From: Promethearchaeota archaeon
GTDB taxonomy: Archaea > Asgardarchaeota > Lokiarchaeia > Sigyniarchaeales > SOKP01
DNA: 23,419 nucleotides
Assembly (NCBI GenBank): GCA_048940645.1
Contig: JBHLOI010000052.1
Span: 1 to 23,419 of the forward strand
Direction: 5' to 3'
Part shown: one piece after another, positions 1 through 20,736 of the stretch
How the letters are laid out: each line of letters begins with the position of its first letter
Numbering within the stretch: position 1 is the stretch's first letter
The notes under the pieces: generated by a model
The model's input: only the letters and a program-made list of their open reading frames with translations
What the model was told of the DNA's origin: nothing
The model's database searches: none
Translations under genes and position numbers: made by a program

Positions 1-1
1 T

Positions 2-3000
2 TTCATAAAATCATGTACGATAACCTTTATTGCTGATGTTCCAGCAGGAACAAATAAAACATATTTTCTATATTATAATGAAAATTCAGAGGGTATTAAT
101 CAGCTAGATTATAATACTGGTTTTTCTAGTTCATTAGCAGGTGGTATTCTCACAATAACTGTTGGTACTGATTATGAAGTGGAACTTGAACAAGGATTAT
201 CAGTAACGAAATGTGAAAGGTTAGGATACAATTTTCATTTGAATAAGTCATTATCACCTGAAAAACAATTAACTGATCCAAGTCTGAAATTCTTAGCCCA
301 TTTTGAAAATTCTGTTGCTGATTCAACAGGTAATGAGCCTGATGGCGTTTTTAATGGAGATCCGGAATATATAAACGGAAGAGTACAATATGGTATGGAA
401 TTTGATGGAAATGATTTTGTAAGCTATGCTAGTGGATTACAAGATGTTGGAGATCCATTTGATGATTTAAGTAATGAATTTACGGCTTGTGCTTGGATTA
501 ATCCAAGTCTACTTTCTGGTGGAGCAACTAATCATCAAACAGAAAATGTATTCCTTGCGAAAGCAAGTGATCCTTATAATGATAATTTTGAAATAGGTAT
601 TAACAACGAGGGTAATATTCACGTCTATCTTGACACTGAAACTGATGATAGATATGCTGATTTTGGACCTGCAGGTAAAATTACTACTACAGGTGGATGG
701 TACTTTGTGGCTGTACGTTATAGAAATGGTCTTGTTGAAGTTTTTATACAAGATACTTGGTACCCTGATTCAACTACATGGGCCGGAGCGATGGATATAG
801 ACCAAGCAGAAGGAAGTCCTTTCACTATAGGAGCTTCAGAGCATATTAATCAATACTTTAAAGGTGTCATTGATGAAGTGGCAGTTTACAATACATTTTT
901 AACTGATCAAGAGGTTGAAGATTATAAATTCGGCTCTATGCCCTCTAAAATTCAATCTATTACTGAATTAGAAAATGGTGATGTCTTTTCTCGATATTTA
1001 ATCGATTGGACAACTATTTTTGATATGCATGTAGAGGATACTTGTACTTTTTATTATGACTATAATCTATGGAGTGTTAATCGTAGTATATATTTTGATA
1101 ATGAGTTCAATTCAACAATAGATAGAATGTTTGTATTGAACACTTATTATGATCTTACAGGATTGAATGATCATAATGAATTTTTGTATATTTACGATGG
1201 AAACTTGCAAAAAGACATAACAACTGCTGGCTTTGTAGCTGAAAATTATACGATTATTCATAACTCTCCTGATCCTGCAAAAGATGCACTAGGAATCTTT
1301 ATTGAAGGTTATGAATTATCAGATGAAGCTCGTATGGATCTTACATATCTAAGAGGAGATGTTATTTATAACGATGGTTTAGTAGAATTTGTCCCAGGAT
1401 CGATTAATGATTTAGATAATGATATAGGCGGTGAAGATAATAGACTAAATGTTTACTTCTGGGAGTTAATAGGTGGTGTAAATGAAACTGGAACTTTAGA
1501 TAATACTGATATGATTCAGTATTTTGATGATATGCTTTCCACATTAAGAGATCCTTTAGATGTTTACCTTTATATGCAAGATAGTTTCTTCTACACTTTA
1601 GAGGTAAATGTAACAGATATTGATAATAGATTAGTACCTGAAACAACAATTACAGTTTGGAATGCTTCAAATCCGACGATTTTTTGGTCTCAACAAACTG
1701 ATGAGTTTGGTAAAACTATTTTTGATCGTTTATCAAATGGAACTTATATCGTAAATGCTTCTTATACACGATATAGTCAAACTTTAACAATTACAAATCC
1801 ACGAATTATAGAACTTAACGATACCACAGTGGATACATTTGGAATTTATAAATTAGAATTTACAAATGTAAAATTAACTTCTTTAGAATTGAAATTTCAG
1901 AGAGAACATCTGGGTGTTATTGAAGAGGATGTAGTTGGAGCAAATATAACATTTACTCTAGATGACGGCTCTGGGCCATCAGTATTAGGATCGGAATATA
2001 CGGATTCTAATGGTGAAGTTATCTTTCACTGGGCTAATTTAACAGACGCAAATAGTGGAAATGTTTCTTTAACAGTTAATTGGCACGGTGAAGATTCAAA
2101 TGATTTAAATTGTGACGATGATTTGGATTCTATACTTCCATTGGTTACACTACCTTTTTATCAGTATCTTAATACTATTGTTAATGTATCTACTGGAAAT
2201 ACATATAAATCATTCTTATATGTAGATTCAAGTGGGGCTAGTAATATTACCTTAGGAGGGAGCTTAAGCATTTGGGTTAACTACTCTTTTCAAAAAAATG
2301 TCGAACCATTAGAACCCATTTTAGGTGGAACTGTGAGTTATGATGTTAAGATTGGAAGTATAGTAATTAATACTGGAGACCTTTATTTTACTGAAACAGG
2401 CAATGGGATTTATAGTTTAGATATTGATACTTCTGATCTTATAGAACCTGGAGGCGCTTCTTGGTTAGCAGGTGTAGCATATGTCATGGATATTTATGCC
2501 ACTAAACCAGGACATATACCCAATCAGACATCTGTGGCATTTACACTTCTAGAAAAAACGACTAGTTTGCTTCCAAACATAAGCCAGGCTCAAGTGTATT
2601 GGAAAGATGTTCTTACTCTAGATGTACATTATATAGATACATTTGCAGATCCAGATATAGATATAAATGGAGCTACTGTTAGTTATGTTGCTCTTGGTGT
2701 AGGTGGAATATCAGGACTTCTTACTCCATACGGTTCAGGAGGATTATATCAACTTAATTTGAATAGTTCATCTTTTCCCATTTATGGAGACTATATATTA
2801 CAATTAACTGCTTCTAAACAGAATTATGAAATAAAAACGATATTTATACCGTTAACAATATTTGAAATTAATACAAGATTGAATGGAACAGCAGCATTAT
2901 ATGAAACCTTTGATGTATTCATTGGTACTTCTAAAATTTTTTCATTTGAATATACCATTGAACAAAGTGGAACCGGCTTATCAAACATTAATGTGAAGGA

Positions 3001-3832
3001 ATGTGTATGGGAAAAAGAAGTTGGTGGTGTTGTTGTTGATAATGGTATTATTGAGCTGACTGAGTTGGGTAATGGACGCTTTGAACTTGATTTAAATACC
3101 GAAAATTTAGAAATAGCAACTTATACCTTAATAGTTACTTTTAGTGAAACAAATTATGTGAGAAGAGATGCTATCATCTTTATTAATATAATTCCAAGAG
3201 AATTCGAGATTGGATATGCAGATATAGTGTCAGTAGTATCTGGTAATGATTTAAAGTTTGATATCTACCTAACCGATCCAATTGACGTAATTCCTATAAC
3301 TAATGCAGAAGTTTATTTAATGGTAGGTGGAACGAGATATAATTTCACTGATAATGGAGATGGAACATATACCGTTGTAGTTCCAGATTCAGCATTACCT
3401 GATGCATTTTTCACAACTGAACGATTATCAACCACTCTTAACATTGAGAAGGCAAATTATAGTGATACCACTAGAAGTGTATTTATCGACGTAAAAATGA
3501 CTGAAATATTCCCTGGTTTCCCTATGTTTTACTTCTTGATGATCGTAATAGGAGTTGTGGCTGTTGTAGGTAGCCTAGTTGCATATCGCGTTATTCAAAA
3601 AGCAAGGATTCCAACTTTTGTGAAACGAGCAAGAGAAATGAGAAGTGATATAAAGGGTAAGAAGACTATCTCTGAATCTCTTTTATATCCCTCTAAAGAA
3701 GAATATATATTAAAAAAGGTAGGAGATAAATGGGAAATGCTAGGATTATCATTAGGAGATATTTTAGGCGTTGAAAGGAAGAAGGGTAAACAAATCCCTA
3801 AGCCCGGTGAATTTGAAGGAGGTGGATTATAA
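2..3832 (+). CDS. Large single-pass cell-surface glycoprotein (LamG/ConA-like domain, Ig-like repeats, C-terminal TM helix and cytoplasmic tail); 5'-partial
   Basis: The frame is open from nt 2 (FIKSCTITFIADVPAGTNKTYFLYYNE...), so GTG179 is not the real start. LamG-type motifs at ~290-930 (EFDGNDFV, FTACAWINP, WYFVAVRY, FTIGA, FKGVIDEVAVYN). Repeated ~100-aa beta units with GxGxY/F turns (TGNGIYSLDIDT, GSGGLYQLNLNS, LGNGRFELDLNT, NGDGTYTVVVPD). More than 20 N-x-S/T sequons. PGF at 3512-3520, hydrophobic helix to ~3586, then an ~80-aa K/R-rich tail. Confidence 0.85.
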   Translation, partial: FIKSCTITFIADVPAGTNKTYFLYYNENSEGINQLDYNTGFSSSLAGGILTITVGTDYEVELEQGLSVTKCERLGYNFHLNKSLSPEKQLTDPSLKFLAHFENSVADSTGNEPDGVFNGDPEYINGRVQYGMEFDGNDFVSYASGLQDVGDPFDDLSNEFTACAWINPSLLSGGATNHQTENVFLAKASDPYNDNFEIGINNEGNIHVYLDTETDDRYADFGPAGKITTTGGWYFVAVRYRNGLVEVFIQDTWYPDSTTWAGAMDIDQAEGSPFTIGASEHINQYFKGVIDEVAVYNTFLTDQEVEDYKFGSMPSKIQSITELENGDVFSRYLIDWTTIFDMHVEDTCTFYYDYNLWSVNRSIYFDNEFNSTIDRMFVLNTYYDLTGLNDHNEFLYIYDGNLQKDITTAGFVAENYTIIHNSPDPAKDALGIFIEGYELSDEARMDLTYLRGDVIYNDGLVEFVPGSINDLDNDIGGEDNRLNVYFWELIGGVNETGTLDNTDMIQYFDDMLSTLRDPLDVYLYMQDSFFYTLEVNVTDIDNRLVPETTITVWNASNPTIFWSQQTDEFGKTIFDRLSNGTYIVNASYTRYSQTLTITNPRIIELNDTTVDTFGIYKLEFTNVKLTSLELKFQREHLGVIEEDVVGANITFTLDDGSGPSVLGSEYTDSNGEVIFHWANLTDANSGNVSLTVNWHGEDSNDLNCDDDLDSILPLVTLPFYQYLNTIVNVSTGNTYKSFLYVDSSGASNITLGGSLSIWVNYSFQKNVEPLEPILGGTVSYDVKIGSIVINTGDLYFTETGNGIYSLDIDTSDLIEPGGASWLAGVAYVMDIYATKPGHIPNQTSVAFTLLEKTTSLLPNISQAQVYWKDVLTLDVHYIDTFADPDIDINGATVSYVALGVGGISGLLTPYGSGGLYQLNLNSSSFPIYGDYILQLTASKQNYEIKTIFIPLTIFEINTRLNGTAALYETFDVFIGTSKIFSFEYTIEQSGTGLSNINVKECVWEKEVGGVVVDNGIIELTELGNGRFELDLNTENLEIATYTLIVTFSETNYVRRDAIIFINIIPREFEIGYADIVSVVSGNDLKFDIYLTDPIDVIPITNAEVYLMVGGTRYNFTDNGDGTYTVVVPDSALPDAFFTTERLSTTLNIEKANYSDTTRSVFIDVKMTEIFPGFPMFYFLMIVIGVVAVVGSLVAYRVIQKARIPTFVKRAREMRSDIKGKKTISESLLYPSKEEYILKKVGDKWEMLGLSLGDILGVERKKGKQIPKPGEFEGGGL
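3818..3825 (+). promoter_or_regulatory. Shine-Dalgarno site (GGAGGTGG) for the 3833 gene, inside the upstream CDS
   Basis: GGAGGTGG ends 7 nt before ATG3833. The upstream stop TAA (3830-3832) directly abuts this ATG, consistent with translational coupling. Confidence 0.75.
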
Positions 3833-4936
3833 ATGCCAGTAGGTTTAGTTGTTATGAAATGGGACGAAAGAGTAGGTACAGAAATCTTAGCCAAATATCC
3901 AGAAGAAATTAATATTTCAGATAAAACATTGATGCAAGTATATAGTACCCATGAATATAGCGGAGAATCGGGTATGATTAGTTTAATGGTAGGCTCCCTT
4001 AATATAGCTTCATATTATACAGGTCCTGATAAGGGATATTATATACTTCTATTATTAAATCTAGATGATGACCCTGATTCTTATGAAAGTGGATTAGTGG
4101 ATGTTTCCAGAATAATTTTACAAAACCTTGACGACAATGCATATGTTCGATTAATTCCTTCACTATTTCAAAGGTTATCTGTTTATCCTACATTAAACGA
4201 TGAGCAGCGCTTAGCAATTACTTATCAAGATGAAATAAAGAGAATGATCATTAATCGTTTAAGAGAAGAAGGGGTAGTGTCTAAATCAGAACTCATGGTT
4301 TGGCTTAAAGACAAGTATAAACAAGGGTTCGTTGATTTAGAAGGAGTTTTAATCGAATTGATAAAAAGCGATATTATAAAAGAAGCATCTGTTAAAGGAA
4401 TGCCATCAGAACTTATTTTCCTTACAAATGATATTTTAATGATGAGAGTACCTCCTGTGCAACTTTTAAAAGATCCTGTCGACAGAGGTTTGCCAGCTCA
4501 ATTGGCAGAAGATTATCGCACCGAATCTAAGAGATTTTTTCAAAACTATCGTCCTTCGGAACAAGACAATCTTACTGTAATTGATGTTATAATTAATCCT
4601 CAAGTATATGAAACTCTCCGTTTATTAAGAACCGCGATAGTTACTCGAAATGATCTTGAAAAGCTTAAAAAGAAAGGTGTAGATGACGTTGATGAGGTAC
4701 TAAAGATGCTCTGGGAAAGTAAAATGATTCAAGTTTTTCAAGATGCACGGAACAATGAATATTATGCTCTACTTTCTGATTTCTATGTTGATCTTATTTT
4801 TCCTAAATATTTACTAAATGTTATCAAAGAAGTGTATGAGAAAAAGTCAAAAGCTAGCCAAGTATTAATTGAATATCTAAACGTACTTGAGAATTCTTAC
4901 TTAGACCTAAAATCTACAGCAAAATCAAAAGATTAA
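3833..4936 (+). CDS. Longin/uDENN-like domain + two winged-helix-like domains (NPRL2/NPRL3-like architecture)
   Basis: N-terminal GLVVMKWDERVGTEILAKYPE fits the uDENN/longin beta-hairpin pattern (hhhxxFDxxxGPxhxxxYP). Two helix-helix-helix-hairpin segments follow: IINRLREEGVVSKSELMVWL...LIELIKSDIIKE...ELIFL and LRLLRTAIVTRNDLEK...VLKMLWESKMIQVF...EYYAL. The ORF is secure; the fold call is inference. Confidence 0.6.
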   Translation: MPVGLVVMKWDERVGTEILAKYPEEINISDKTLMQVYSTHEYSGESGMISLMVGSLNIASYYTGPDKGYYILLLLNLDDDPDSYESGLVDVSRIILQNLDDNAYVRLIPSLFQRLSVYPTLNDEQRLAITYQDEIKRMIINRLREEGVVSKSELMVWLKDKYKQGFVDLEGVLIELIKSDIIKEASVKGMPSELIFLTNDILMMRVPPVQLLKDPVDRGLPAQLAEDYRTESKRFFQNYRPSEQDNLTVIDVIINPQVYETLRLLRTAIVTRNDLEKLKKKGVDDVDEVLKMLWESKMIQVFQDARNNEYYALLSDFYVDLIFPKYLLNVIKEVYEKKSKASQVLIEYLNVLENSYLDLKSTAKSKD

Positions 4937-4941
4937 CTTAA

Positions 4942-4971
4942 TTTTATTTATTTTTTTTTCTTTCTACTTTT
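4942..4971 (+). terminator. Archaeal oligo-T terminator tract
   Basis: TTTTATTTATTTTTTTTTCTTTCTACTTTT starts 6 nt after the stop at 4936. Confidence 0.5.
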
Positions 4972-5087: not shown

Positions 5088-6458
5088 GTGATAAATTTGG
5101 ATGAAAAAATTCCCCCAGAATTTGATGATTTTGATTTAGAAAATCTTTCCAAACCTAATGCTCTTCCAGAAGATATAGATTACGAGAATCATATTGTTGC
5201 TACTTATAGTGCAATGCTTCATAGAAAAATGGATGCGTTTTATATGATGCAAGCTGTTTGCATTGAACAATCAACAGGTACTTTTGTTCCTGTTCCTGCA
5301 GAAACTCCAGAACAACGAAGAAAACATGTAGCAAAAGTGATTGGATGGTGGAGAATTCCAGATTTTGAATACGAGGGTGCAGAAGAATTTTTTGGAAACC
5401 CCAAAATGCATCAATACGTAGTACAAATAGCATTTCCCTTAAACTTTAGGCCTCAATTTCCTATGCTCTTTACAACTATATATGGAAATATTTCAATGGG
5501 CGGTCCATTAAAGATGATGGATGTTCGATTTCCAAAAGCATTTTTAAAGGAATTTAAGGGACCTAAATTTGGAGATGTGGGAATTAGGAATATTTTAGGA
5601 GTTAAAGAACGCCCATTACTAAATAACATGATTAAGCCTTGTGTATATTCTGATCCAAAAATAGGTGCAGAACTTGCATATCAAGCAGCAGTAGGTGGCT
5701 GTGATATCATAAAAGATGATGAATTAATCGCAGATGTGGGATTTAATCCCATTACCGAAAGGGTAACTGCTTTTATGGAAGCGCTAGATAGAGCAGATTC
5801 CGAAAAAGGCGAAAAAACTTTATACACGGTTAACATAACTGATAGAGTCGATAAAATGTTTGAGTTAGCAGATATTGTACAAGAACATGGAGCAAATGCT
5901 TTAATGGTTAATCATATTTCAACAGGATATTCTGCCATGAGGAAATTAGCCGAAGATCCTTCTGTTAAGGTACCTATTTTAGGACATATGGATCTTGCAG
6001 GAGCTCTTTATCAGGATCCTCTCAGTGGTATTTCAAGCCCTTTAATACTTGGTAAATTTGGAAGATTGGCCGGGTGTGATACAATAGTACATCCAGCACC
6101 ATATGGTAAAGCACCTACAATGGCAGATAGGTTCAAGGAAACTGCTCGACAAATGGTTATGCCAATGGGTAATGCTCCACATATTAAAAGAACCTTGCCA
6201 ATGCCATCCGGCGGTATTACTCCTAGTTTAGTTGAAAAATGTGTTCAGGATTTAGGGACAAATATTATGATTGGTAGTGGTGGTGGAATTCATGCTCACC
6301 CTGATGGTCCCATTGCTGGGGCAAAAGCATTTAGACAAGCGATTGATGCAGTAATGAAAGGTATTTCTGTAAGAGACTATGGCAAAGAACATAAAGAATT
6401 GGGTACCGCATTAGGTTTGTTTGGTGTAGGTAAAAAGACTGAATTTACTTCAGTATAA
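5088..6458 (+). CDS. RuBisCO-like protein (form IV RLP)
   Basis: Motifs EQSTGT, IYGN, FKGPKFG, MIKP, GGCDIIKDDE (carbamylated Lys motif), YTVNITD, PMPSGG and GSGGGIHAHPDG are present. The K177 equivalent is Cys (IKPC) and HR is replaced by HM (GHMDLAGA), as expected for a non-carboxylating RLP. Confidence 0.88.
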   Translation: MINLDEKIPPEFDDFDLENLSKPNALPEDIDYENHIVATYSAMLHRKMDAFYMMQAVCIEQSTGTFVPVPAETPEQRRKHVAKVIGWWRIPDFEYEGAEEFFGNPKMHQYVVQIAFPLNFRPQFPMLFTTIYGNISMGGPLKMMDVRFPKAFLKEFKGPKFGDVGIRNILGVKERPLLNNMIKPCVYSDPKIGAELAYQAAVGGCDIIKDDELIADVGFNPITERVTAFMEALDRADSEKGEKTLYTVNITDRVDKMFELADIVQEHGANALMVNHISTGYSAMRKLAEDPSVKVPILGHMDLAGALYQDPLSGISSPLILGKFGRLAGCDTIVHPAPYGKAPTMADRFKETARQMVMPMGNAPHIKRTLPMPSGGITPSLVEKCVQDLGTNIMIGSGGGIHAHPDGPIAGAKAFRQAIDAVMKGISVRDYGKEHKELGTALGLFGVGKKTEFTSV

Positions 6459-6509: not shown

Positions 6510-7478
6510 TTATTCAAATCTCTCAACCAAATATCTTTTTAAAACCACTTTTATTTCAGGTTTAAAGTCAGTTGGTTTTATATAATTAACAATTTTATTA
6601 CCGCAAAGATCAAGAAATTCTAGATTAGGAAAGCCTTGAAGAAAACTGAGATTTTTCAAATCATTAAGTTTATTATTTGATATCCTTAAATGAGTCAACG
6701 ATTTAAGATCTTTTAATTTTTTTATATCTTCAATTTGATTATTTGAGAGATCCAATTTCTTGAGGTTTCTCAAAAGATTTAATCCTTCTATTTCAGAGAG
6801 ACTAGAAATATTATTTTTCCATCCCCAAGGTGTTCCCTTAACCTCGTATTCCAAATAATCCGATAAATCTAATTCTTCTACTAGTAAACTTTTTGGATTT
6901 ATTTCAAAATAAACATTAGGAAGCTTCTCTGATAAATGTTTTACAGTTAAAAAATTAATAATTATTTCTGAGATATGACTAAGGGAAAAACTTTCTAGCT
7001 TCCTCGTTTTAAGTATCCTCTTTATTCCCTTTTTATACTTTTTATTTTCATATCTCCTCTCGACATTAAGGTATTTGACTTTTCTTATTTTTTTTAGCTC
7101 TTCTATCAAAATTTTTTTAGATTCAGTTTCTTCAATTTTAGCTAAAGTTTTTAATAAAGCAATTAAACATTTATAAGAGGTTTCATATTTGACTGCCCAT
7201 TTTATGGGGGGTAAAACTTTTTCTTGATAATTGATGAAGAGGTAATTAAGAGCAGAATTTCTTAACTCTGGATTTTTATCAGAAACCAATAAATTTTCAA
7301 TAATTTTAAAAATTTTTTCATCCTTGGCTCTAATCCTATTTAATATTTCAATAGACTCTAATCTCAATTGATCCTCATCGGAATTTTCAATAATTGATAA
7401 CAACAAATCAATTGAAGATTTTTTATCTAAGTCATTATTATTTAGCTTCTCATAGATTTTTTGAGGGGTAAGATTCAT
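6510..7478 (-). CDS. HEAT-like N-terminal module + short LRR protein
   Basis: N-terminus IIENS..RLESIEIL..FKIIENLLVSD.N..LRNSA is shared with the 15629 and 17038 genes. C-terminal ~22-aa LRRs (LKKLDLSNNQIEDIKKL, LTHLRISNNKL, LEFLDLCGNKI). Confidence 0.85.
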   Translation of the reverse strand: MNLTPQKIYEKLNNNDLDKKSSIDLLLSIIENSDEDQLRLESIEILNRIRAKDEKIFKIIENLLVSDKNPELRNSALNYLFINYQEKVLPPIKWAVKYETSYKCLIALLKTLAKIEETESKKILIEELKKIRKVKYLNVERRYENKKYKKGIKRILKTRKLESFSLSHISEIIINFLTVKHLSEKLPNVYFEINPKSLLVEELDLSDYLEYEVKGTPWGWKNNISSLSEIEGLNLLRNLKKLDLSNNQIEDIKKLKDLKSLTHLRISNNKLNDLKNLSFLQGFPNLEFLDLCGNKIVNYIKPTDFKPEIKVVLKRYLVERFE

Positions 7479-7545: not shown

Positions 7546-10032
7546 TTAAGATAATCGTGTTTCAATAGTAGCTTTATTTTCAAATTCAATGGTTAGCTCC
7601 CAAATATTTTCCTTTTTGTTAATAATATGAAAATTAGAATTGCAATCAATAATTTGCTTTCCAGATGGGAGTTTTAAATATAAGCTTCCTTTTCTTTGTC
7701 CAATTAACGCAATTTCAATTAAAAGTATTTTCTCTTTATTATTAAATTCATACTTTTTGATTTCATGGCATCCTTGGGAGATATGGAAAGAAGTAGAAAG
7801 TAAAATTGGATTAAAAAGGAGTTCACTATCAATAGGAATAATAGATATGAATTTACAAGAATGAGGAGGTATGTTAGCGAATTCAATTTCTTGATTTTCT
7901 TTATATTTGCCTAAGAGAATTCCATCCCAAAATTCATAAATCAAAAATTCTTTTTGATTAGGCTTATTTGTGAATATTATATTATTAATTTTTAACTTTC
8001 TATTAACGAAATTGTCATCCCAGTTTATTATTGCTACCAAAAATCGTTTTCCAATGGGTTCATCTGTTTCTAACATATAAATTGTTGGTAATTTTGAAAT
8101 AAATGCATCAACCACTACTGGATAGTAATTTTTTGGATTATATGGAGGAATAAGTAATTTAGCATCGTTTATTTCTTCATCTGATAATTTTGTCATATCA
8201 TCGGATATTAGAATTTGACCTCCAGACAATCCCATTATTGTTAATTGTAATTTTATTTCATCTATTGTTAATTCTGTATCGGTTCTTCTTATCATCAAAC
8301 AATCAGGGTCATTTATCCAAAAATTTCTATGCATAAATGACCTGTAGATAATATTTAGTAAGGACACTTTTAATGCGGGTGTATGAATCCCAGATTCTAT
8401 AAGTTGCATATTTGTCTCTTCCCATCTTGGATCAGTATCCTCTCCAATACGCATCGCATCAACTAAACCAACACATGGTCCTAAGGGGGCCCCACATCCT
8501 AGTAAAAAACTATGGCCCGTAATTGCATTTCTTATTGTTTTAACTCCATTATATAAAATTTGCGCTCTTGTAAGATCTTGGTTTGAAAAATCACCCTCAA
8601 TAGGAACTGCAGCATGTAAAAAATCTATTTTAAAGAACTCAATTTTATAATTATCAGATTTTTGGTCTAATTTATTGGCATATAGAAGACTTCTATAAAA
8701 ATTATTTAAATAATCTAAAACTTCATTATTTGAGAGATCTAACCCATATAAGTGGACATTCCAACTAAGTCCATAATGTACTTTAAGCAATTTCTTTGAA
8801 TTTTTATCTTTTAAAAACCAATCACGATGTTGCTTGAATAAGTTAGCTCTTCTTTCAGCAAAAAATGGTGCTGTCCAAATTCCACTTTTAAGACCAGATT
8901 CGTTAATTTTATTAAATAAATATGGTAAGCCGTTTGAAAATTTTGAATTAACGACGTTGAAATCACCTATATAAGTAAAGTATCCATCATCTAATTGGAA
9001 AAAATCAATAGGGATCATATGCTTATTTTTTTTGAAGAATTCTAAGTTCTTGATTATACTTGCTTCTGATATATCTGTAAAATAATAATACCAGCTACAC
9101 CATCCAATTGGAATTGTTTCATTTTGATTAGCATTAATGGTCTTCTTAATTATTTTTGCATAATCAATTAGACCATAATAACCATGATTTTCACTCTTAA
9201 AACAAATAAATAATTCCTCTGAAAAATTAATGGATGTGCTCCTAAAATGAATGCCATCCATGCACCCAAAAGCGGTAAGTAATTTAATTTCAATATTTCT
9301 ATCATAATCCAATATAATTCTTGAAAATTGATCTTTTAGAGTGAGAAAACCCATGATTAAAGAGCTATTTGATTCTATATCAGTTATAGCTGTACAATAT
9401 TCGCTATAAAATCTACCTTTAATTTCATAATCTTGATTATCAAATACGCGTTTATAAATTTCAGATTTAGGACCTTCATGATCTTTCTCATTACCGAATA
9501 AAATTGTACAGGGACTCCAACTTTGCCAACCATGTTTAAACCAAGAGATCTTATTTAATTTTGTTGCATTAAAGGTTCCAGATAACCATAAATTACTATT
9601 TTTAATAGTCAAAGGGGATATGCTGTGAACTCTTTCTTGAAATTTTTCATTATTGATAATATCAGTAATTTTTATCAAAATGAATTTTTGATTTCGATAG
9701 ATTTTAAATTGTATATTAAATTGGATTTTTAAACTTTTAGGGTTAATAGGAGTCAGGATTATCTTATTTCCATCCCCAATTTGATCTTTAACCTCCTCAA
9801 CCTTAGAATTAAAATTAATACCTTTAGAGCAGTATTCGTTAATGGGATTTGATTTTCCACTTAGAAAATTTATAGCACAATAAGCATCTTTCAGAAAATA
9901 TTTTTTACCATTTTCTTCATTGTGGAAAATCTCATAGGTTCCAGCATACTTTCCAATCTTATAAAAAGTTAGAGAAATAACACCATTGTTAATATTAATA
10001 AAATTTGTATTATTATTAACTAAAATTGACAT
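7546..10032 (-). CDS. Alpha-galactosidase, glycoside hydrolase family 36
   Basis: GH36/clan D motifs HGWQSWS, IGWCSWYYYF, FQLDDGY, GIWTAPF, FFKIDFL (nucleophile Asp), LGCGAPLG, MRIGEDT (acid/base Asp) and WINDPDCL. ATG10032 is preferred over TTG10053, but the start is uncertain. No signal peptide seen. Confidence 0.88.
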   Translation of the reverse strand: MSILVNNNTNFININNGVISLTFYKIGKYAGTYEIFHNEENGKKYFLKDAYCAINFLSGKSNPINEYCSKGINFNSKVEEVKDQIGDGNKIILTPINPKSLKIQFNIQFKIYRNQKFILIKITDIINNEKFQERVHSISPLTIKNSNLWLSGTFNATKLNKISWFKHGWQSWSPCTILFGNEKDHEGPKSEIYKRVFDNQDYEIKGRFYSEYCTAITDIESNSSLIMGFLTLKDQFSRIILDYDRNIEIKLLTAFGCMDGIHFRSTSINFSEELFICFKSENHGYYGLIDYAKIIKKTINANQNETIPIGWCSWYYYFTDISEASIIKNLEFFKKNKHMIPIDFFQLDDGYFTYIGDFNVVNSKFSNGLPYLFNKINESGLKSGIWTAPFFAERRANLFKQHRDWFLKDKNSKKLLKVHYGLSWNVHLYGLDLSNNEVLDYLNNFYRSLLYANKLDQKSDNYKIEFFKIDFLHAAVPIEGDFSNQDLTRAQILYNGVKTIRNAITGHSFLLGCGAPLGPCVGLVDAMRIGEDTDPRWEETNMQLIESGIHTPALKVSLLNIIYRSFMHRNFWINDPDCLMIRRTDTELTIDEIKLQLTIMGLSGGQILISDDMTKLSDEEINDAKLLIPPYNPKNYYPVVVDAFISKLPTIYMLETDEPIGKRFLVAIINWDDNFVNRKLKINNIIFTNKPNQKEFLIYEFWDGILLGKYKENQEIEFANIPPHSCKFISIIPIDSELLFNPILLSTSFHISQGCHEIKKYEFNNKEKILLIEIALIGQRKGSLYLKLPSGKQIIDCNSNFHIINKKENIWELTIEFENKATIETRLS

Positions 10033-10082
10033 GAATTTTCTCTCTAAGACCAATTTAGATTAAATTAACATCTGATTTCTGT

Positions 10083-11363: not shown

Positions 11364-12455
11364 TTATAAGTATTTGCTTGTAATTCCATCAAAAGCAGTA
11401 AGAAATTTGTTATTCTGTTCTTCTGTCCCTATGGTTAACCTAATGTAATTATATAATCCAGGTTGACTAAAGTGGCGTACTAGGATCTTCATATCCTTCA
11501 AATCCCATAAAAATTTAAGGGTGGTTGATTTATCGTCAAATTTTATAAATATAAAATTAGCATCTGAAGGAGCTACACTTATACCATTATATTTATTCAG
11601 TTCCTCGGTCAATCTCTTTCTTTCTGAAATAATTTCTTTATTTTGTTCAAAAATTTTTCTTCTATATTTTATGCATAACAGTGCTGTGATTTGCGCGATA
11701 TAACTTGTATTATACGGTAATTTAACTTTATTCATCTCTTTAATTATTATTGGGTCAGCTAACGCATAACCCATTCTCATTGAAGCTACAGAAAATGTTT
11801 TGGAGAAGGTTCTACAAACTATTAAATTTTTTATAGTTTTTAATAATGATAAACATGTAAAATCTGAGAAATCAGCATAAGCTTCATCTACAACTACAAT
11901 TCCAGAAAAATGTTCACACAAATTTGTAATAATTGAATTTTGAAATGATTTACCATTTGGATTATTTGGTGAATTAATAAACATTAATTTTCCTTTTACA
12001 TTAAAACTTGAATCTGGTATACTAAAATCATCATTTAATTTAATTTCGTTTATTTTGGCATCATAAAGATTAGCTAATACTTTATAAATCCCATAAGTGG
12101 GATAAAATACTACAACTTCATCTCCAGGATTTATAAAAACCTTAAATATAATATCAAAAATCTCATCTGAACCATTACCAATGAAAATACTATTTCTATT
12201 TGTAAGAGTATCTTTATCTCTTAAAAGCTGGTTAAGAACAGCTTTTCTTACTTCAAGTGCAAGAGAATCAGGATACTTTCTTAGCACTTCACCATTTCCA
12301 ATAGCATCTTTTATATCTTCCACAATTTCAGGAACAGGAGGGTATGGATTTTCGTTAGTATTTAATAAAATCCATCCATCTTCAGGGGCTTGTTCTCCCG
12401 GTTCGTAAGGATTATATTTCTTAAGACTATTTTTAAATAAATCTGCTATATCCAT
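11364..12455 (-). CDS. hisC: Histidinol-phosphate aminotransferase (class II PLP aminotransferase)
   Basis: Motifs LNTNENPY, YPD, GNGSDE, SPNNPNG, VVDEAY, RTFSK (PLP lysine), RMGY, SDANFI and RLTIGT. It lies next to a hisD remnant. Confidence 0.9.
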   Translation of the reverse strand: MDIADLFKNSLKKYNPYEPGEQAPEDGWILLNTNENPYPPVPEIVEDIKDAIGNGEVLRKYPDSLALEVRKAVLNQLLRDKDTLTNRNSIFIGNGSDEIFDIIFKVFINPGDEVVVFYPTYGIYKVLANLYDAKINEIKLNDDFSIPDSSFNVKGKLMFINSPNNPNGKSFQNSIITNLCEHFSGIVVVDEAYADFSDFTCLSLLKTIKNLIVCRTFSKTFSVASMRMGYALADPIIIKEMNKVKLPYNTSYIAQITALLCIKYRRKIFEQNKEIISERKRLTEELNKYNGISVAPSDANFIFIKFDDKSTTLKFLWDLKDMKILVRHFSQPGLYNYIRLTIGTEEQNNKFLTAFDGITSKYL

Positions 12456-13867: not shown

Positions 13868-15625
13868 ATGCTATTCAAAAAGCTAGCAGATTTATTTTCT
13901 AAGCTAGAGAGCACATCAAAAAGACTTGAAATGATTGATATTCTATCAAATTTTTTTCTAGACATTAAAAATACAAATAATTTTTCTGATTTAGATAAAA
14001 TCGTTTATTTACTGCAAGGCCAACTAGTTTCCAACATTAAGCAATTTCCTAAATTAGGACTTGCTGAAAAGATGATCATTGAGGCTTTATCGCTCCATTC
14101 AGGCATTAATGGAAAAGAAATAAAAAATATCTTATTAAAAGAAGGAGATATAGGTGCTACAGCAGAATTAATTCTTTCTAAGAAGAAAAAACAAAAGTCT
14201 TTATTTGATTTTGATAAGCATTTGGAAGCCTCAGAATCATCTTTAGAGATATCTGAATTATATTCTGCGCTACAAAAAATAGCTACAACTGAAGGTTCTG
14301 GTTCTCAAGATATCAAATTAGGAATTTTGCGTAGTTTGATGAGAAAATGTTCTCCTATTGAAACAAAATATCTATTAAGAATAATAACATCGACCTTAAG
14401 GGTGGGAGTATCAACTTTAACAATTATTGATGGTTTAGCACAAGGATTTATTGGCGATAAAAAAGCAAGAGATTTCATTGAGAAGGCTTACAATCAACAT
14501 CCTGATTTGGGAGACGTCACTTTAATTTTAGCGAGAGATGGAATAGAAGAAGTAAAAAAAATTAAGATCTCTTACGGTACACCTGTTCGAAATATGCTTG
14601 CATCTCGAGTTTCTTATTCAGAAATTATTGATAAGTTAGGAAAACCTTGTATTGCTGAATATAAATTAGATGGTGAAAGATTACAAATTCACAAAATGGG
14701 AGAGAAGATATTGCTATTTTCTAGAAGATTGCTTGAAATTTCTGAGCAGTATCCTGATGTTTGTCAAGTTATTAGGGATAAAATTAAAGTAAAAAGAGTT
14801 ATTCTTGAAGGAGAAGTAGTAGCAATGGATCATTTTTATGAAAAAATGCTTCCATTCCAAGTGTTAAGTAGAAGGCGAAGAAAGTATGATATTGAAGACA
14901 TTTCTAAAGAAATACCTGTAAGTTTATTTTTATTTGACTTATTAATGATTGGGGATGAATCATACATAGATAAAACCTATCCTGAACGTAGGAAAAAGCT
15001 TGAAGAAATTGTAGAACAGAAAGATGAAATACGCCTAGTTGATTCAAAAGAAATTAAATCCACAGAAGAGATGTTGGACTTCTTTAATGAAGCAAGGAAT
15101 GCAGGAACCGAGGGTATAATTGTCAAATCCATAAAAGATGACTCATTTTATCAAGCAGGAAATCGTGGTTTTCTCTGGATAAAGCTAAAAGGACTTGAAG
15201 GTGGAAAGTTAGCTGATACGGTTGACGTGGTACTAGTAGGAGCATTTTATGGAAGAGGCCGTAGAAAGGGATGGTATGGAACCTATATTGGAGCAGTCTA
15301 TGATCCTTTAAATGATAAATTTGAAGCTTTTACTCGTATAGCATCAGGTTGGACTGATGAAATAATGGAAATATTAAAGAATGAGGTGAAGAAGTATGAA
15401 GTTGAGAAAAAACCGAGTGATGTTATATGTGATGATAAACCAGATCAGTGGTTAATACCAGAAATTGTTATTGAAATATTTGGTGATGAAATTACTGTTA
15501 GCGATAAATTTTCTTCTTTAGGGTATTCTATGAGATTTCCTGTATTTCAAAGAATTCGTCCAGAAAAGGGTCCAAAAGATATAACAACTGTTGATGAAAT
15601 AACACGCTTATATGAAACTCAATAA
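13868..15625 (+). CDS. lig: ATP-dependent DNA ligase, archaeal type
   Basis: Motif I EYKLDGERLQIH, plus LFSRRL, ILEGEVV, FLFDLL, EGIIVK, YQAGNRGFLWIKLK, DTVDVVLVGAFYGRGRR and RFPVFQRIRPEK. N-terminal DNA-binding domain present. Confidence 0.96.
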   Translation: MLFKKLADLFSKLESTSKRLEMIDILSNFFLDIKNTNNFSDLDKIVYLLQGQLVSNIKQFPKLGLAEKMIIEALSLHSGINGKEIKNILLKEGDIGATAELILSKKKKQKSLFDFDKHLEASESSLEISELYSALQKIATTEGSGSQDIKLGILRSLMRKCSPIETKYLLRIITSTLRVGVSTLTIIDGLAQGFIGDKKARDFIEKAYNQHPDLGDVTLILARDGIEEVKKIKISYGTPVRNMLASRVSYSEIIDKLGKPCIAEYKLDGERLQIHKMGEKILLFSRRLLEISEQYPDVCQVIRDKIKVKRVILEGEVVAMDHFYEKMLPFQVLSRRRRKYDIEDISKEIPVSLFLFDLLMIGDESYIDKTYPERRKKLEEIVEQKDEIRLVDSKEIKSTEEMLDFFNEARNAGTEGIIVKSIKDDSFYQAGNRGFLWIKLKGLEGGKLADTVDVVLVGAFYGRGRRKGWYGTYIGAVYDPLNDKFEAFTRIASGWTDEIMEILKNEVKKYEVEKKPSDVICDDKPDQWLIPEIVIEIFGDEITVSDKFSSLGYSMRFPVFQRIRPEKGPKDITTVDEITRLYETQ

Positions 15626-17037: not shown

Positions 17038-18537
17038 TTATTTATAGATAATTAATCCTCGTTTCTCTAAATCTTTCAAAAAGTTTGGAATTTCAGCTAT
17101 ATAATTAAAATTTAAATCTAATATTTTAAGTGAAGATAAATTGGAAATAGATTGAGGAAGTTTATATAATTTATTACCCCATAAACTTAATGTTTCTAAT
17201 GATTGAAGAGAACCAAACCATTCTGGCAATTCTTCAAAATTGTTCCAACTTAAATTTAATTTTCTAAGAGATTTTAATAAGCTAAATGATTTAGGTAATA
17301 TAGTTAATCTATTATTCCATAATGTAAGTTCTTCTAAAGATGATAATGAACCAATAGATTTTGGAAGATTTATTAATTCATTGTCGTATAAATGAAGAGT
17401 TTTAAGGGATCTTAGTGAACTAATCCAATTTGGTAATTGCTTTAATTTATTTCCCCCTAATCCCAATTTTGTGATTGATTTTAGAGATTTTATCCAAGTC
17501 GGGAACTTTTCCAATTTGTTTAAACCAAGCTCTAAATATTTTAGCGATAATAGCTTTTTTAGTGAAATATTGATACTTTTTAAGTGATTTCCATATAAAT
17601 CTAAAACTTCTAAATTCGAAAGCCTATTTAATGATTTTGGTAAGGATTTTAATTTATTTGATCTTAAATCTAGGATTTTAAGAAGTTTAAGATTCCCTAT
17701 CGAATCTGGAACATGGGTCAATTGATTATATCTTAAATTTAGATGTTCTAATGCTTTTAAGTTTCCTATTTCGAATGGAAGTTCACTAAGTTTATTATAG
17801 CTTAAATCAAGATGAATTAATGAAGTTAATATACTTACGGAATTTGGAATGAAGCTTAATCGATTAAACTTTAAATCAAGTACTTTCAATGCCTTTAATT
17901 CTGTTATGAATTCGGGGACTTTTTTCAATATGCTCCATCCATATACACTACTACTTATATCGGATAAATCTAATTCAGTAATTACTCCTTTATATAATTT
18001 AAAATCTATTTTACCGTATTTTTTTTCTAAATGATAAATTATTAAATAATTCTTAAGAATATCAGCAAGATCCTTAATAGAAAAATTTAGTTTGTCTATC
18101 CTTTTAAATAGATTAGTATAATGGCTTTTAAAATCACTGATTTCTATTGTATTTAGTTTATTAATAATTATCGTTCTTGATTGATGGTTATCTATTTCAC
18201 CTAAAGTATTTGTTATAGTTAATAAACATCTCAGTGATTTCTCATGATTAAGTGCAAAAGCAAATGGTTCAAGTATTTTATCTTTGAAATTTTTTCTCAG
18301 TATGTTTAATGCGTTAAATCTAATTATTTCATGTTTGTCAGATATTAATAAATTTTCTAACAGTTTGAAAATGCGAGGATTTACTGCCGATAATTTTCCC
18401 AAAACAACTATGCTTTTGACTCTATCAATTATATTTTCACTATTATCTATTAATGAAATTAATTGATTTATAGCTGAAGACTTATCTATTTCATTATTAA
18501 GATAGCTATCATAAACTATATCTGGAGGTAATTCCAT
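17038..18537 (-). CDS. HEAT-like N-terminal module + ~12-13 LRRs of 23 aa
   Basis: Same N-terminal module (IDKSSAINQLISLIDNS...FKLLENLLISD...ALNHEKSLRCL), 12 clear 23-aa LRRs and a C-cap LEKRGLIIYK. Confidence 0.9.
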   Translation of the reverse strand: MELPPDIVYDSYLNNEIDKSSAINQLISLIDNSENIIDRVKSIVVLGKLSAVNPRIFKLLENLLISDKHEIIRFNALNILRKNFKDKILEPFAFALNHEKSLRCLLTITNTLGEIDNHQSRTIIINKLNTIEISDFKSHYTNLFKRIDKLNFSIKDLADILKNYLIIYHLEKKYGKIDFKLYKGVITELDLSDISSSVYGWSILKKVPEFITELKALKVLDLKFNRLSFIPNSVSILTSLIHLDLSYNKLSELPFEIGNLKALEHLNLRYNQLTHVPDSIGNLKLLKILDLRSNKLKSLPKSLNRLSNLEVLDLYGNHLKSINISLKKLLSLKYLELGLNKLEKFPTWIKSLKSITKLGLGGNKLKQLPNWISSLRSLKTLHLYDNELINLPKSIGSLSSLEELTLWNNRLTILPKSFSLLKSLRKLNLSWNNFEELPEWFGSLQSLETLSLWGNKLYKLPQSISNLSSLKILDLNFNYIAEIPNFLKDLEKRGLIIYK

Positions 18538-18659
18538 TAAGTCTCAAAATTTGCTGTAATTTTTAATTTTTTATTTTGAATCCAAAAGGACAATAATATG
18601 AAGTGGTTTTAATTATTGACTTTTACTATTTATGTTGAATTGAAATGTAAATTGTATGT

Positions 18660-19040
18660 TTAAATTTTAATTGTTAGGTCTCTTTCTTTTAAAACTCGCA
18701 AAGATTTAGATAAATTGTCTACCTTATTGAAATTTAAATATAAAGTTTTTAGATTTTTAAGGGATTCTATTGAGTCAGGAATTTCTTTTAAATTATTCCC
18801 CCAAAGATTTAAAAACTCTAGAGATGTAAGAGAGTCAATCCAATTTGGAATGGAATCTATATTATTCTCACTTAAATTTAGAGTTTTAAGTGATGTTAAT
18901 TTTGCGTTACATTGTGGTAATCCAGTAAACTTATTATTCCTAAGATTTAATTCTACCAATTTATTTAAAAATTGAAAACTGTCAAGGAGGTTCTTTAATG
19001 TATTATCATATAAATGCTATACTTTAAGGCATTCTCGGAG
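18660..19040 (-). pseudogene. 5'-deleted, nonsense-interrupted LRR paralog
   Basis: Upstream of the 99-aa ORF the frame reads LRECLKV*HLYDNTLKNLLDSFQFLNKLVELNLRNN..., with TAG at 19017-19019 occupying a conserved Leu position. The five repeats and C-cap align in order with the end of the 17038 protein. There is no room for an N-terminal module before the AMP phosphorylase stop. Confidence 0.8.
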
Positions 19041-19044
19041 TTAA

Positions 19045-19066
19045 AGGCACACTTTTTAATGTGCCT
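19045..19066. repeat. 7-bp inverted repeat (AGGCACA-N8-TGTGCCT), possible terminator hairpin of the AMP phosphorylase gene
   Basis: Perfect 7-bp stem starting 10 nt past the minus-strand stop at 19076. Confidence 0.4.
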
Positions 19067-19075
19067 ATATTTTCT

Positions 19076-20614
19076 TTAAATTTTCTCTAGTATCATACCA
19101 CCCAGAGTTATTGGTCCACCTGATGCATTATATATCTTTTCTGCTTTTTTCAATTTAGACTGACTATGAGAATAAATTCGAAAAACAAGATCTCCTTCCT
19201 TCAGCCTTGCACCTTGTTTCTTTATGATTTCAACACCCGATTTTTTTGAATTCGGGCACCCCACAGCCTTTGCTATTTGATTTATTATTGAATTTTTAAC
19301 CTCAACAATGTATCCTTCTTTGGTAGCAAAAAACTCTTTTACATTTGGCCCGATCTCAATATCATCAGGCGTTATCTCAGGATTTCCACCTTGGGTTTCA
19401 ATAATGCTTTTCATTTTTTCATAAGCTTTGCCAGATCTTAATAATTCTTTTGCCAAAGCTTGACCTGACCCTTTTTGAGCTTTTCCACCCATTTCTAGTA
19501 ACATACCTGCTAAATCAGTAGATTTCTCGATTAAAGAATTTGGACCTGCTGAATAATCTTTCAGTAAAGTTAAGGCTTCTTTTGCTTCAAGAGCTGGTCC
19601 AATTGCGTGGCCTATAGGTTGATGTGCTAAGGTTAGCGCACATTCTGCTTCTATTCCTACATTAGCAGCAATTTCTTTAAATAGATAAGCAAATTGTTTA
19701 CCTTTATCAGGGGTTTGGAATTTAGTACCCTCACCGACAGGAATATCCAAAACAAGCTTTTTTACACCCATGCTTAGTTTTTTAGTGAGTATAGAGGGAA
19801 TCATTAAACCAATAGGATCCATATGAAGAGGGCGTTCAATTTCAATTAAAATGTTATCAGCAGGCGCAATATCTAATGCTCCACCCCAAATGATGCAAGC
19901 ATTTTCTTTTGAAACGATATCCTTTAATTCATCTGATTTAAAAGTAACAGGAGCTAATACTTCCATTGAATCAGCTGTACCTGATGGTGAAGTAATTGCT
20001 CTTGTAGATGATTTTGGAATGGTTAATCCCGCAGCAGCAACAATAGGGACAATTAGTAATGAGACTTTATTACCGGGCACTCCGCCTGTACTATGTTTAT
20101 CATAGACATCCATACCAAAATAAAAAATATCTCCACTCCTAACCTCTGCTAAAGTCAATGACGTCATTTCTTCATTATCCATACCATTTATTTGAACTCC
20201 CGTTATAAAAGCAGCTAAATCTATTCGGGATAATGATCCTGAAACAGCATCTGATATAAAATTATTTATTTCTTCACTGCTAAGTTTTTTCCCCTTTATC
20301 TTTTTTTGTATAAATCTAAAAGAATCTGGGGGATCTGCGGGCTTTACTGAAATGATTGTTCCATCTGTTAGATTTTTCTTTTCTTTTAAAATATCTAGAA
20401 AAATCCCGATTTCACCTGGTTTTACAATAGAATCAGAATAATCTATCTGGATTATCGCAACCCAAAATTCACTCTCAATTGATTTTGATTCTTTATTTCT
20501 TATATAGATTCGTTCTCCCGCTTTTTGACCAAGTTCTTGAGCATCTTTAATATTTAAAACAATATCTTTAGTATTTCCAGTTTCATAGTCTACTTTTTTT
20601 ACTTTTAGCTTCAT
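19076..20614 (-). CDS. deoA: AMP phosphorylase (archaeal long-form thymidine phosphorylase family)
   Basis: Motifs DKHSTGGVPGNK, IPKSSTRAITSPSGTAD, WGGALDIAPAD, LDIPVGEGTK, QPIGHAIGPALEA and IIETQGG. It has the ~95-aa N-terminal extension typical of AMP phosphorylases. Confidence 0.92.
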   Translation of the reverse strand: MKLKVKKVDYETGNTKDIVLNIKDAQELGQKAGERIYIRNKESKSIESEFWVAIIQIDYSDSIVKPGEIGIFLDILKEKKNLTDGTIISVKPADPPDSFRFIQKKIKGKKLSSEEINNFISDAVSGSLSRIDLAAFITGVQINGMDNEEMTSLTLAEVRSGDIFYFGMDVYDKHSTGGVPGNKVSLLIVPIVAAAGLTIPKSSTRAITSPSGTADSMEVLAPVTFKSDELKDIVSKENACIIWGGALDIAPADNILIEIERPLHMDPIGLMIPSILTKKLSMGVKKLVLDIPVGEGTKFQTPDKGKQFAYLFKEIAANVGIEAECALTLAHQPIGHAIGPALEAKEALTLLKDYSAGPNSLIEKSTDLAGMLLEMGGKAQKGSGQALAKELLRSGKAYEKMKSIIETQGGNPEITPDDIEIGPNVKEFFATKEGYIVEVKNSIINQIAKAVGCPNSKKSGVEIIKKQGARLKEGDLVFRIYSHSQSKLKKAEKIYNASGGPITLGGMILEKI

Positions 20615-20736
20615 AGTTTAAATCCAATTTTTTGTTATAGAGATATAAGAACATTTAAGTTTATATTTTTAATGTTATAAATAAGTTTTCTGTTAGATAA
20701 ATAAATTTAATTAGAAAGCATTAAATAATTTGAATT

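Follow-up and report, generated by a model that had tools for sequence, protein, structure and literature searches.

The DNA analyzed here, called the window, is positions 1–23,419 (forward strand) of contig JBHLOI010000052.1 from a Promethearchaeota archaeon. It begins inside a gene for a giant putative surface protein, giantB, which is followed directly by a gene for a 367-aa cytoplasmic protein with a longin domain and two winged helices (WH), partnerB; this pair and its relatives are the subject of the analysis. The 3′ part of giantB is an open reading frame (ORF) of 1276 aa at 2..3832 (+), open at its 5′ end and closed by the TAA at 3830–3832. PartnerB (3833..4936, +) starts with the ATG at 3833–3835, in the same frame, and the single stop codon of the TAA|ATG junction (3830..3835) is all that separates the two ORFs. 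A Shine-Dalgarno-like GGAGGTGG lies inside the final codons of giantB (3818..3825, +), 7 nt before the partnerB ATG. Past the partnerB stop there is a T-rich tract (4940..4962, +) that includes nine consecutive T residues at 4951–4959, and the first ORF beyond it begins at 5088. Transcription in archaea terminates at oligo-T, and the tract is likely a terminator of this kind. The abutting stop and start, the GGAGGTGG within the upstream gene and the T-tract after the second one had been pointed out in an earlier, sequence-only reading of this DNA, and each was found again in the ORF list and the sequence.

The missing beginning of giantB is found on another contig of the same genome, C47. Window positions 1–77 are an exact copy of its final 77 nt (41839–41915), and the last 25 residues of the 173-aa ORF at the end of C47 are the first 25 of the window ORF, so that the contigs join and the truncation of giantB is an assembly break rather than biology. 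The first 148 aa are encoded at C47 41396–41914, giving a full protein of 1424 aa, with the whole gene running from C47 41396 through window 3832 and partnerB following at window 3833–4936. Joining the contigs also reveals the true order of the locus. A first pair, giantA (C47 34401–38720) and the partnerA coupled to it (C47 38720–39823), lies upstream; between partnerA and giantB, on the opposite strand, is a gene for a 347-aa longin-Arf-like GTPase (C47 39872–40915), 49 nt past partnerA and 480 nt upstream of giantB. The order is giantA-partnerA, GTPase, giantB-partnerB.

The giant protein has the predicted layout of a single-pass surface receptor or adhesin, with an N-terminal helix, a lectin domain, one transmembrane (TM) helix and a tail; its topology and glycosylation are read from the amino acid sequence. 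An N-terminal hydrophobic signal or anchor helix is present on the ORF at the end of C47, and in orthologues. Residues 155–305 of the window ORF (464..916, +) match the ConA-like lectin/LamG_3 family (PF13385) at E 2.2e-17, with 64 bits against a cutoff of 27.6, and the domain is likewise present in a full-length orthologue (locus L009). A transthyretin/CarboxypepD_reg-like beta-sandwich (PF13620) at aa 532–594 (1595..1783, +) is a lead only, its Pfam match (E 3.8e-5) falling below the curated cutoff; with weak Big_1, SdrD_B and NOMO matches elsewhere in the ectodomain, it is one of several candidate immunoglobulin (Ig)-like repeats. The 1315-aa ectodomain has 27 N-x-S/T sequons, where shuffled sequences have 15.8 ± 3.4; the partner has two in 367 aa. 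The lectin match and the sequon enrichment agree with the extracellular lectin or adhesin proposed in the sequence-only reading, which also had the protein continue past its TM helix. That helix spans about aa 1168–1199 (3503..3598, +; Kyte-Doolittle mean up to 2.64 in a 19-residue window) and is followed by a basic cytoplasmic tail of 77 aa (3599..3829, +), where about 80 had been estimated. All complete orthologues looked at retain the TM helix; orthologues, at 1168–1933 aa, have a helix at the N-terminus and a single TM helix toward the C-terminus.

The tail carries the motif RIPTFVKR...ISESLLYPSKEEY...GDKWE.LGLSL..ILG...EGGGL. Across 46 aligned tails, positions I9, P10, F12, I23 and S56 are invariant and 19 further columns are at least 90% conserved. 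Among orthologue tails G79 and G80 also reach at least 90%, making the C-terminal (E)GG nearly invariant; it coincides with the Shine-Dalgarno bases, so these codons are doubly used, consistent with dual coding. The tail has a pI of 9.9 and a net charge of +8, against a pI of 4.9 for the partner. Judged by sequence identity, the ectodomain appears to evolve fast across orthologues and the tail does not: compared with the window, L014 has a giant protein that is 39% identical, a tail that is 77% identical and a partner that is 90% identical. At two loci (L053, 9438–10001, and L065, 9528–9998) the giant is replaced by a two-helix membrane protein of 156–187 aa that keeps the tail and the coupled partner gene. 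This form looks like a natural minimal module, and since these stubs keep TM helix and tail, the conserved element facing the partner is pointed to as the TM-tail segment.

The 367-aa partner was modeled with AlphaFold2 from a 59-sequence alignment (pLDDT 93.1, pTM 0.86). The model begins with a longin domain at aa 1–120 (3833..4192, +) in the order beta-beta-alpha-beta-beta-beta-alpha-alpha (DSSP: E2–11, E15–22, H30–43, E47–53, E56–62, E69–75, H81–97, H104–120; pLDDT about 90 or more). Winged helix 1 follows at aa 123–206 (4199..4450, +; pLDDT 97 as a fragment model) and is joined by a linker helix to winged helix 2 at aa 243–322 (4559..4798, +), past which lie C-terminal helices at aa 327–366 (4811–4930, +). 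The longin fold claimed in the sequence-only reading is borne out by the model and by GATOR1 longin matches at Z 12.2–12.5 (rmsd 2.6–2.7): VIA-align places the domain on 8fw5_B of GATOR1 at Z 12.2 (root-mean-square deviation, rmsd, 2.7 over 118 aa) and on 9o5d_D at Z 12.5. There are 64 chains at Z of at least 8, and the top matches listed are mostly longin or roadblock domains. The GATOR1 longin scores about one Z unit above VAMP7, Ykt6, FNIP2, Lst4 and DENND1, a margin that makes NPRL2 the best longin match, though not a uniquely specific one. For the whole model, GATOR1 chains of NPRL2 or NPRL3 take the first six Foldseek places (E 1.4e-4 to 7.6e-4), followed by Mon1-Ccz1, SEAC Npr, Fuzzy-Inturned and ESCRT-II, with low whole-chain TM-scores of 0.19–0.26. 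The most conserved longin motif, W10-D11-[ED]-R13-x-G15, is in the beta1–beta2 loop; among the 59 family members W10 is kept in 54, D11 in 47, R13 in 31 (K in 8) and G15 in 55.

At the sequence level the family is nameless. The partner matches no Pfam or NCBIfam family, and Pfam at E ≤ 1 returns just DUF4909 and eWH_GTF3C1. In a large protein collection there are 819 homologues, all hypothetical proteins, the top 120 at 79–95% identity, and a search of the ESM Atlas returned only unnamed Asgard clusters. In a sample of 201 genomes from across the phylum, 148 have members at E ≤ 1e-10; several families gave none, f5 among them (0 of 21).

The winged helices raise the alternative of a membrane-tethered transcription switch, in which the partner would bind DNA as a regulator and the surface protein would either keep it at the membrane or set it free, by a ToxR/CadC-type or anti-sigma-like logic. 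The closest solved matches of both are among MarR/ArsR/Phr-type regulators. Winged helix 1 matches generic structures, MarR-type regulators and the cullin WHB domain (Z 8–9.2), and winged helix 2 matches ArsR/SmtB-type winged helices (Z 7.6–8.2); a PDB profile search with the partner returned winged-helix regulators only, with PH1932 at E 2.7e-4 over aa 248–316, and a few of the 59 members have weak Pfam matches to HTH_20, HTH_5 or TrmB (best E about 1e-4). The charges speak against it. In the 59 members winged helix 1 has a median net charge of −1 (pI 5.8) and winged helix 2 of −2 (pI 5.0), in a protein that is itself acidic, and judged on charge neither has the basic surface with which MarR- and ArsR-type domains bind DNA. 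Folded alone (pLDDT 97), the C-terminal half has no Foldseek match at E 1e-3 or better, its top match being ESCRT-II (2zme_A, 1.1e-2), with only generic winged helices at Z 8–9 in VIA-align, and the winged helices of NPRL2/3 and ESCRT-II are described as protein-binding modules (Levine et al., PMC3747258). Neither the longin domain nor the conserved GTPase operon considered below would have a role in such a switch. With acidic winged helices across the family and GTPase operons beside its members, a DNA-binding role is very improbable.

The pairing of giant and partner was followed through 61 related loci, gathered from public genomes with a single partner protein as query. At 59 of them a same-strand ORF stops between −1 and +15 nt from the partner start, and at the other two the genes are fused in frame. 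The spacing is 0 nt at 13 loci, −1 nt at 35, +1 to +4 at 10 and +15 at one. Among the 59 upstream ORFs, 41 are complete (1168–1933 aa), 14 run off a contig edge, and four are shorter (156–638 aa) with the same TM helix and tail. The window's own genome has three further, paralogous pairs, one on C47, with a giant of 1439 aa and a partner of 367 aa, and two on contig C109, with giants of 1343 and 1251 aa and partners of 375 and 376 aa, respectively. The adjacency of the two genes, to which the sequence-only reading had looked for support, is in this sense conserved, and the recurrence of the abutting layout at 59 of 61 loci and in three paralogous pairs is more than chance. Among 20 regions from more distant genomes, nine homologues are immediately preceded by a gene for a TM protein that has a cytoplasmic tail.

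Two aspects of these arrangements may be recorded separately. The window and 12 other loci have an in-frame stop with no gap, where readthrough would yield the fused architecture; 35 loci overlap by one base, in another frame. On C109 (8362–21361, −) there are three tandem giant genes of 1343, 1251 and 1315 aa with a common tail motif, two of them with a coupled partner; immediately behind the third (17414–21361) comes another giant gene instead of a partner.

Some relatives dispense with the junction altogether. An exhaustive search of representative proteins returned proteins of 1330–2548 aa, along with shorter fragments, whose C-terminal 360 aa are 53–66% identical to the partner. In seven long fusions, and in fragments of 722 and 588 aa, an ectodomain and TM helix lead into the tail motif already described; a linker of about 25 aa comes next and then the longin-WH module, which is reached without a stop and without a start methionine. 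These in-frame fusions, as predicted proteins, tie the partner physically to the tail. In a FastTree phylogeny of 198 modules the 13 fused forms group with one contig-edge fragment in a single clade. Its sisters are the clades of window type (59 rows) and C47 type (15 rows), and all lie within a starred clade of 89. Repeated independent fusion was considered and rejected, as the tree needs just two state changes, one of them at the contig-edge fragment. One genome (L036:1–19452) has three fused giant-longin-WH genes in tandem, two of them complete at about 2655–2670 aa.

Coupled genes do not by themselves require coupled proteins. The two products might never touch, the coupling serving to balance their expression or the partner aiding biogenesis of the giant (folding, insertion, glycosylation), with the fusions an accident of one lineage. 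Since all fused forms belong to one clade, a single event would be enough, and there is a precedent for the biogenesis role in the longin-fold SRX, which with the Arf-like SRbeta serves membrane-protein targeting and whose SR chains match the partner longin at Z 8.7–10.2. The tail is the difficulty for this account: it is conserved far beyond the ectodomain and kept where the ectodomain is lost (L053, L065). Its class also tracks that of the partner. In the C109 pairs the tail carries another motif, FKYPP.VRKIRKLRKK, which is shared by locus L086, and the partners of both form a separate clade. In addition, a module at the C-terminal end of a fused protein cannot serve early targeting. Co-expression without contact is accordingly rated quite unlikely, although somewhat better than the DNA-binding account.

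The GTPase gene between the two pairs gives the locus a possible third component. The 347-aa protein has GVGKT, DFAGQ and NKQD motifs and an N-terminal longin-like extension of about 120 aa, and its Pfam matches are Arf (E 4e-20), Roc (1.4e-14), Ras (1.8e-13) and Gtr1_RagA (2.7e-5). An hhalign comparison with the partner alignment found no relation (probability 0.4), so that the longin-like part of the GTPase is no close copy of the partner longin. Of the 37 loci with at least 1400 nt of upstream sequence, 15 have an orthologous GTPase (E below 1e-147) on the opposite strand, 260–700 nt upstream of the giant, against an expectation of 0.55 derived from 57 GTPase-like ORFs in the 3.83-Mb genome. 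Chance adjacency at window-type loci was rejected on this basis, the loci being related and the comparison of 15 with 0.55 descriptive, not a formal test.

Beyond this clade the GTPase is found with the longin-WH family itself. In all five f8 genomes, and in all five f19 genomes with a GTPase match, a longin-WH homologue in the same orientation precedes it, with 0–42 nt between the genes. In f7 the longin-WH and GTPase genes overlap at all six loci fetched blind around the GTPase, none of which has a giant. A longin-GTPase of 32% identity is found in f12, directly upstream of a 580-aa homologue. By gene order, GTPase and longin-WH homologue appear to form a two-gene operon in three other Asgard families (f7, f8, f19). 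Since these arrangements, with that of f12, extend beyond the clade, the association of adaptor and GTPase is wider than that of adaptor and giant. The link to GTPase signaling that had been proposed from the sequence alone thus takes the form of conserved synteny with one longin-Arf-like GTPase.

In eukaryotes, Arf-GTP recruits the longin-containing AP and COPI adaptors to cargo tails. On this model the longin-WH protein would be a cargo adaptor that, with its Arf-like GTPase, binds to the conserved tail as its recognition site and sorts, clusters or positions the giant adhesin, for instance on protrusions or in vesicles, and no external signal would be read. Several features suit such a role: longins of AP sigma/mu type and of COPI zeta align with that of the partner at Z 9.5–10.4, almost the NPRL2 level; Arf is the best Pfam match of the GTPase; the N-terminus of the f12 relative resembles clathrin-adaptor small chains (PF01217, E 9.7e-5); and the tail, in common with sorting signals, forms a short linear motif region. 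Cultured Lokiarchaeon cells are also described as having many complex surface proteins on their protrusions (PMC9834061). The fused forms fit less well, since they fix the adaptor permanently to its "cargo," which would be unusual in a recycling coat adaptor, and no coat-like genes were seen adjoining the module in the window's genome. The operons of f7, f8 and f19 lack a giant, from which it follows that the core function of adaptor and GTPase is independent of giant cargo. Sorting in this strict sense is considered possible, though unlikely.

The reading preferred here, held with moderate confidence, is that the giant and its longin-WH partner, with the GTPase as the next component inward, work as one membrane-spanning unit. 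Outside the cell there would be a giant, fast-evolving and probably glycosylated protein of lectin and Ig-like repeats; inside, its short basic tail would hold the acidic adaptor with its longin domain and two winged helices. Termination and reinitiation at TAA|ATG would allow the two to be made in matched amounts. The adaptor would then work with a dedicated GTPase that has an N-terminal longin domain of its own and an Arf/Roc-like G domain, likely by longin-longin pairing as in platforms of the NPRL2-NPRL3, FLCN-FNIP and SRX-SRbeta type, and such pairing would couple the GTPase switch to the surface protein. The adaptor may touch tail and GTPase in this manner and may have GTPase-activating (GAP) or nucleotide-exchange (GEF) activity or be a passive platform, and information could flow in either direction: outside-in sensing and inside-out sorting or positioning of the adhesin suit the same parts. 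Sensing of contact or nutrients, as suggested in the sequence-only reading, would be one use of such a unit. On genomic and structural grounds the receptor-adaptor idea of that reading is supported.

A number of observations weigh against this reading. At 22 of the 37 loci there is no GTPase upstream of the giant, and these include the three closest orthologues (L009, L012, L013). Among 10 GTPase loci fetched blind, three (L106–L108; f3, f21) have no family member nearby and one has a longin-only relative. Eleven of the 20 distant homologues have no membrane protein upstream, a count that also favors co-expression without contact. The related genomes are kin, so that the pair counts overstate independence, and the fusions, while genuine Rosetta-stone evidence, amount to one evolutionary event because they form one clade. 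Metatranscriptome contigs (one run, with 7% of sampled words present) are 85–95% alike and so derive from relatives. They reach into both genes, but none has 31 letters on each side of 3832/3833; this is counted here among the points against and is neutral on co-transcription.

Other such points concern the likeness to NPRL2/NPRL3. The 59 members have no NPR2, NPR3, DENN or folliculin match in Pfam among the 25 of 66 families listed. The catalytic arginine finger of NPRL2 is Arg78 in its longin domain; in the 59 members no arginine is invariant within longin aa 1–120, and the residue at position 13 is R in 31. The GP motif of GAP-type longins is mostly absent as well, with residue 16 a P in seven of 59 and most commonly T, A or V. 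With no conserved arginine finger and the GP motif mostly missing, a self-sufficient GAP of NPRL2 type is argued against, and the partner is more like a non-catalytic partner subunit. The NPRL2/3-like character given to the protein in the sequence-only reading therefore holds for its domain layout and top structural matches; a sequence match to those families or a conserved arginine finger was not found.

A stronger version of the preferred reading would make the unit a true transmembrane receptor system, in which a ligand or cell contact at the hypervariable lectin/Ig ectodomain acts through the tail and the NPRL2-like adaptor on the nucleotide state of the longin-Arf/Rag-like GTPase. This is a tentative proposal and on present evidence an unlikely one. 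If it were true, the longin GAP/GEF platforms of eukaryotes (GATOR1, folliculin, C9orf72-SMCR8) would have had a forerunner in this archaeal module, wired to the membrane before there were organelles. Asgard genomes encode dozens of longin and roadblock proteins and small GTPases, almost none with an assigned partner or role, and the module offers a concrete wiring for some of them, with one surface protein, a tail motif, an adaptor family and a GTPase family. Should the link hold, GTPase platforms of eukaryotic type would have been coupled to the cell surface in archaeal relatives of eukaryotes, with a bearing on the origins of cell-cell contact, protrusions and later endomembrane signaling. 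Should it fail, the pair would still define an Asgard protein family that is large, strongly conserved and as yet without a name.

Several further genes of the window are neighbors of the module. Directly downstream is a RuBisCO large-subunit-like gene (5088–6458, +; Pfam RuBisCO_large, E 1.4e-44), probably a separate transcription unit past the T-tract. Nearby is a gene for a protein with HEAT and leucine-rich repeats (6510–7478, −); another leucine-rich-repeat protein is encoded near the C109 modules (L093:1465–2448, −), a recurrence that may be chance. Housekeeping-like genes follow for an 835-aa GH31/melibiase-like glycosidase (7546–10053, −), a class I/II aminotransferase (11364–12455, −) and an ATP-dependent DNA ligase (13868–15625, +).

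Some other family members have different neighbors. A long protein, of 667 or 724 aa, is encoded on the same strand behind each of two paralogous longin-WH genes (C109 5206–7209, −, and C19 16112–18286, −). Both long proteins match apolipoprotein-like coiled coils, and the one on C109 has an N-terminal TrmB-type winged helix. These coiled-coil-like proteins may be another recurrent partner of longin-WH proteins. On C54 (58109–63517) a divergent 357-aa family member has no giant beside it; genes in its vicinity encode a 230-aa Arf-like GTPase, a membrane protein with a VTT/DedA domain and a phosphatase of the PAP2 type.

Among known systems, the partner is closest to NPRL2 and NPRL3 (Npr2/Npr3 in yeast), the longin subunits of the GATOR1/SEACIT GAP complex for RagA/Gtr1, in which the two paralogues form a heterodimer bound to DEPDC5. 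Levine et al. (PMC3747258) describe these proteins as having a longin domain at the N-terminus and, after it, at least two winged helix-turn-helix repeats, a definition that the longin and two winged helices of the partner fit, so the architecture matches. NPRL2/3 chains give the best whole-model Foldseek matches, their longins align at Z 11–12.5 (rmsd 2.6–3.0 over 117–119 aa), and in both systems the associated small GTPase itself bears a longin/roadblock-type domain. There are also differences. The partner lacks a sequence-level match, a conserved arginine finger and, mostly, the GP motif, and its TM-scores are only 0.19–0.26; no DEPDC5-like third subunit was seen here; the neighboring GTPase is Arf/Roc-like rather than Rag-like (Arf E 4e-20 vs. 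Gtr1_RagA 2.7e-5); and NPRL2/3 do not share the partner's coupling, or fusion, to a surface protein that crosses the membrane. On the evidence of the model, the similarity appears to be architectural only.

Longins of this general kind have already been reported from Asgard archaea. Many NPRL2-like longin fusions, and also longin-GTPase fusions, are described by Liu et al. (bioRxiv 10.1101/2020.10.19.343400), and "Ca. L. ossiferum" is reported to be enriched in NPRL2-like longin domains (PMC9834061). The fusions given by Liu et al. for the NPRL2-like asCOG proteins are with two-component signaling domains, and a giant surface protein, conserved tail or GTPase operon is not mentioned in the relevant parts of that text. 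A full-text search of a limited collection, which did not extend to the supplements of Liu et al., found no publication on coupling or fusion of longin-WH proteins to giant surface proteins, on the conserved tail or on the GTPase operon.

Asgard longins of FLCN/SMCR8 type have also been published (PMC12290439), and the C9orf72-SMCR8 and FLCN-FNIP complexes share the longin fold with the partner, FNIP2 and FLCN chains matching at Z 10–10.9 and C9orf72-SMCR8 at Z 8.5–8.9. The same source gives W33-D34 ... G38-P39 for C9orf72 and places a GP motif at the start of beta2 in FLCN, SMCR8, C9orf72 and NPRL2. The spacing of W10-D11-x-x-x-G15 in the partner equals that of W33-D34 ... G38, a match by residue numbers alone. 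Unlike these proteins, the partner has no DENN module, has a proline after the glycine in just seven of 59 members and lacks a conserved arginine finger.

In overall plan the proposed unit also resembles Ragulator-Rag and SRalpha(SRX)-SRbeta, in which a small GTPase docks on a longin or roadblock platform that is anchored in the membrane; the partner longin aligns with LAMTOR, MglB and SRX chains at Z 8.5–10.2. Here, however, neither a lipid nor a helix of the GTPase itself would serve as anchor, but the tail of a giant protein outside the cell, and tandem winged helices are added to the platform. Both components belong to known kinds, longin GTPase platforms on the one hand and archaeal surface adhesins on the other, and as far as gene and protein sequences indicate they are joined here in a manner that appears not to have been described.

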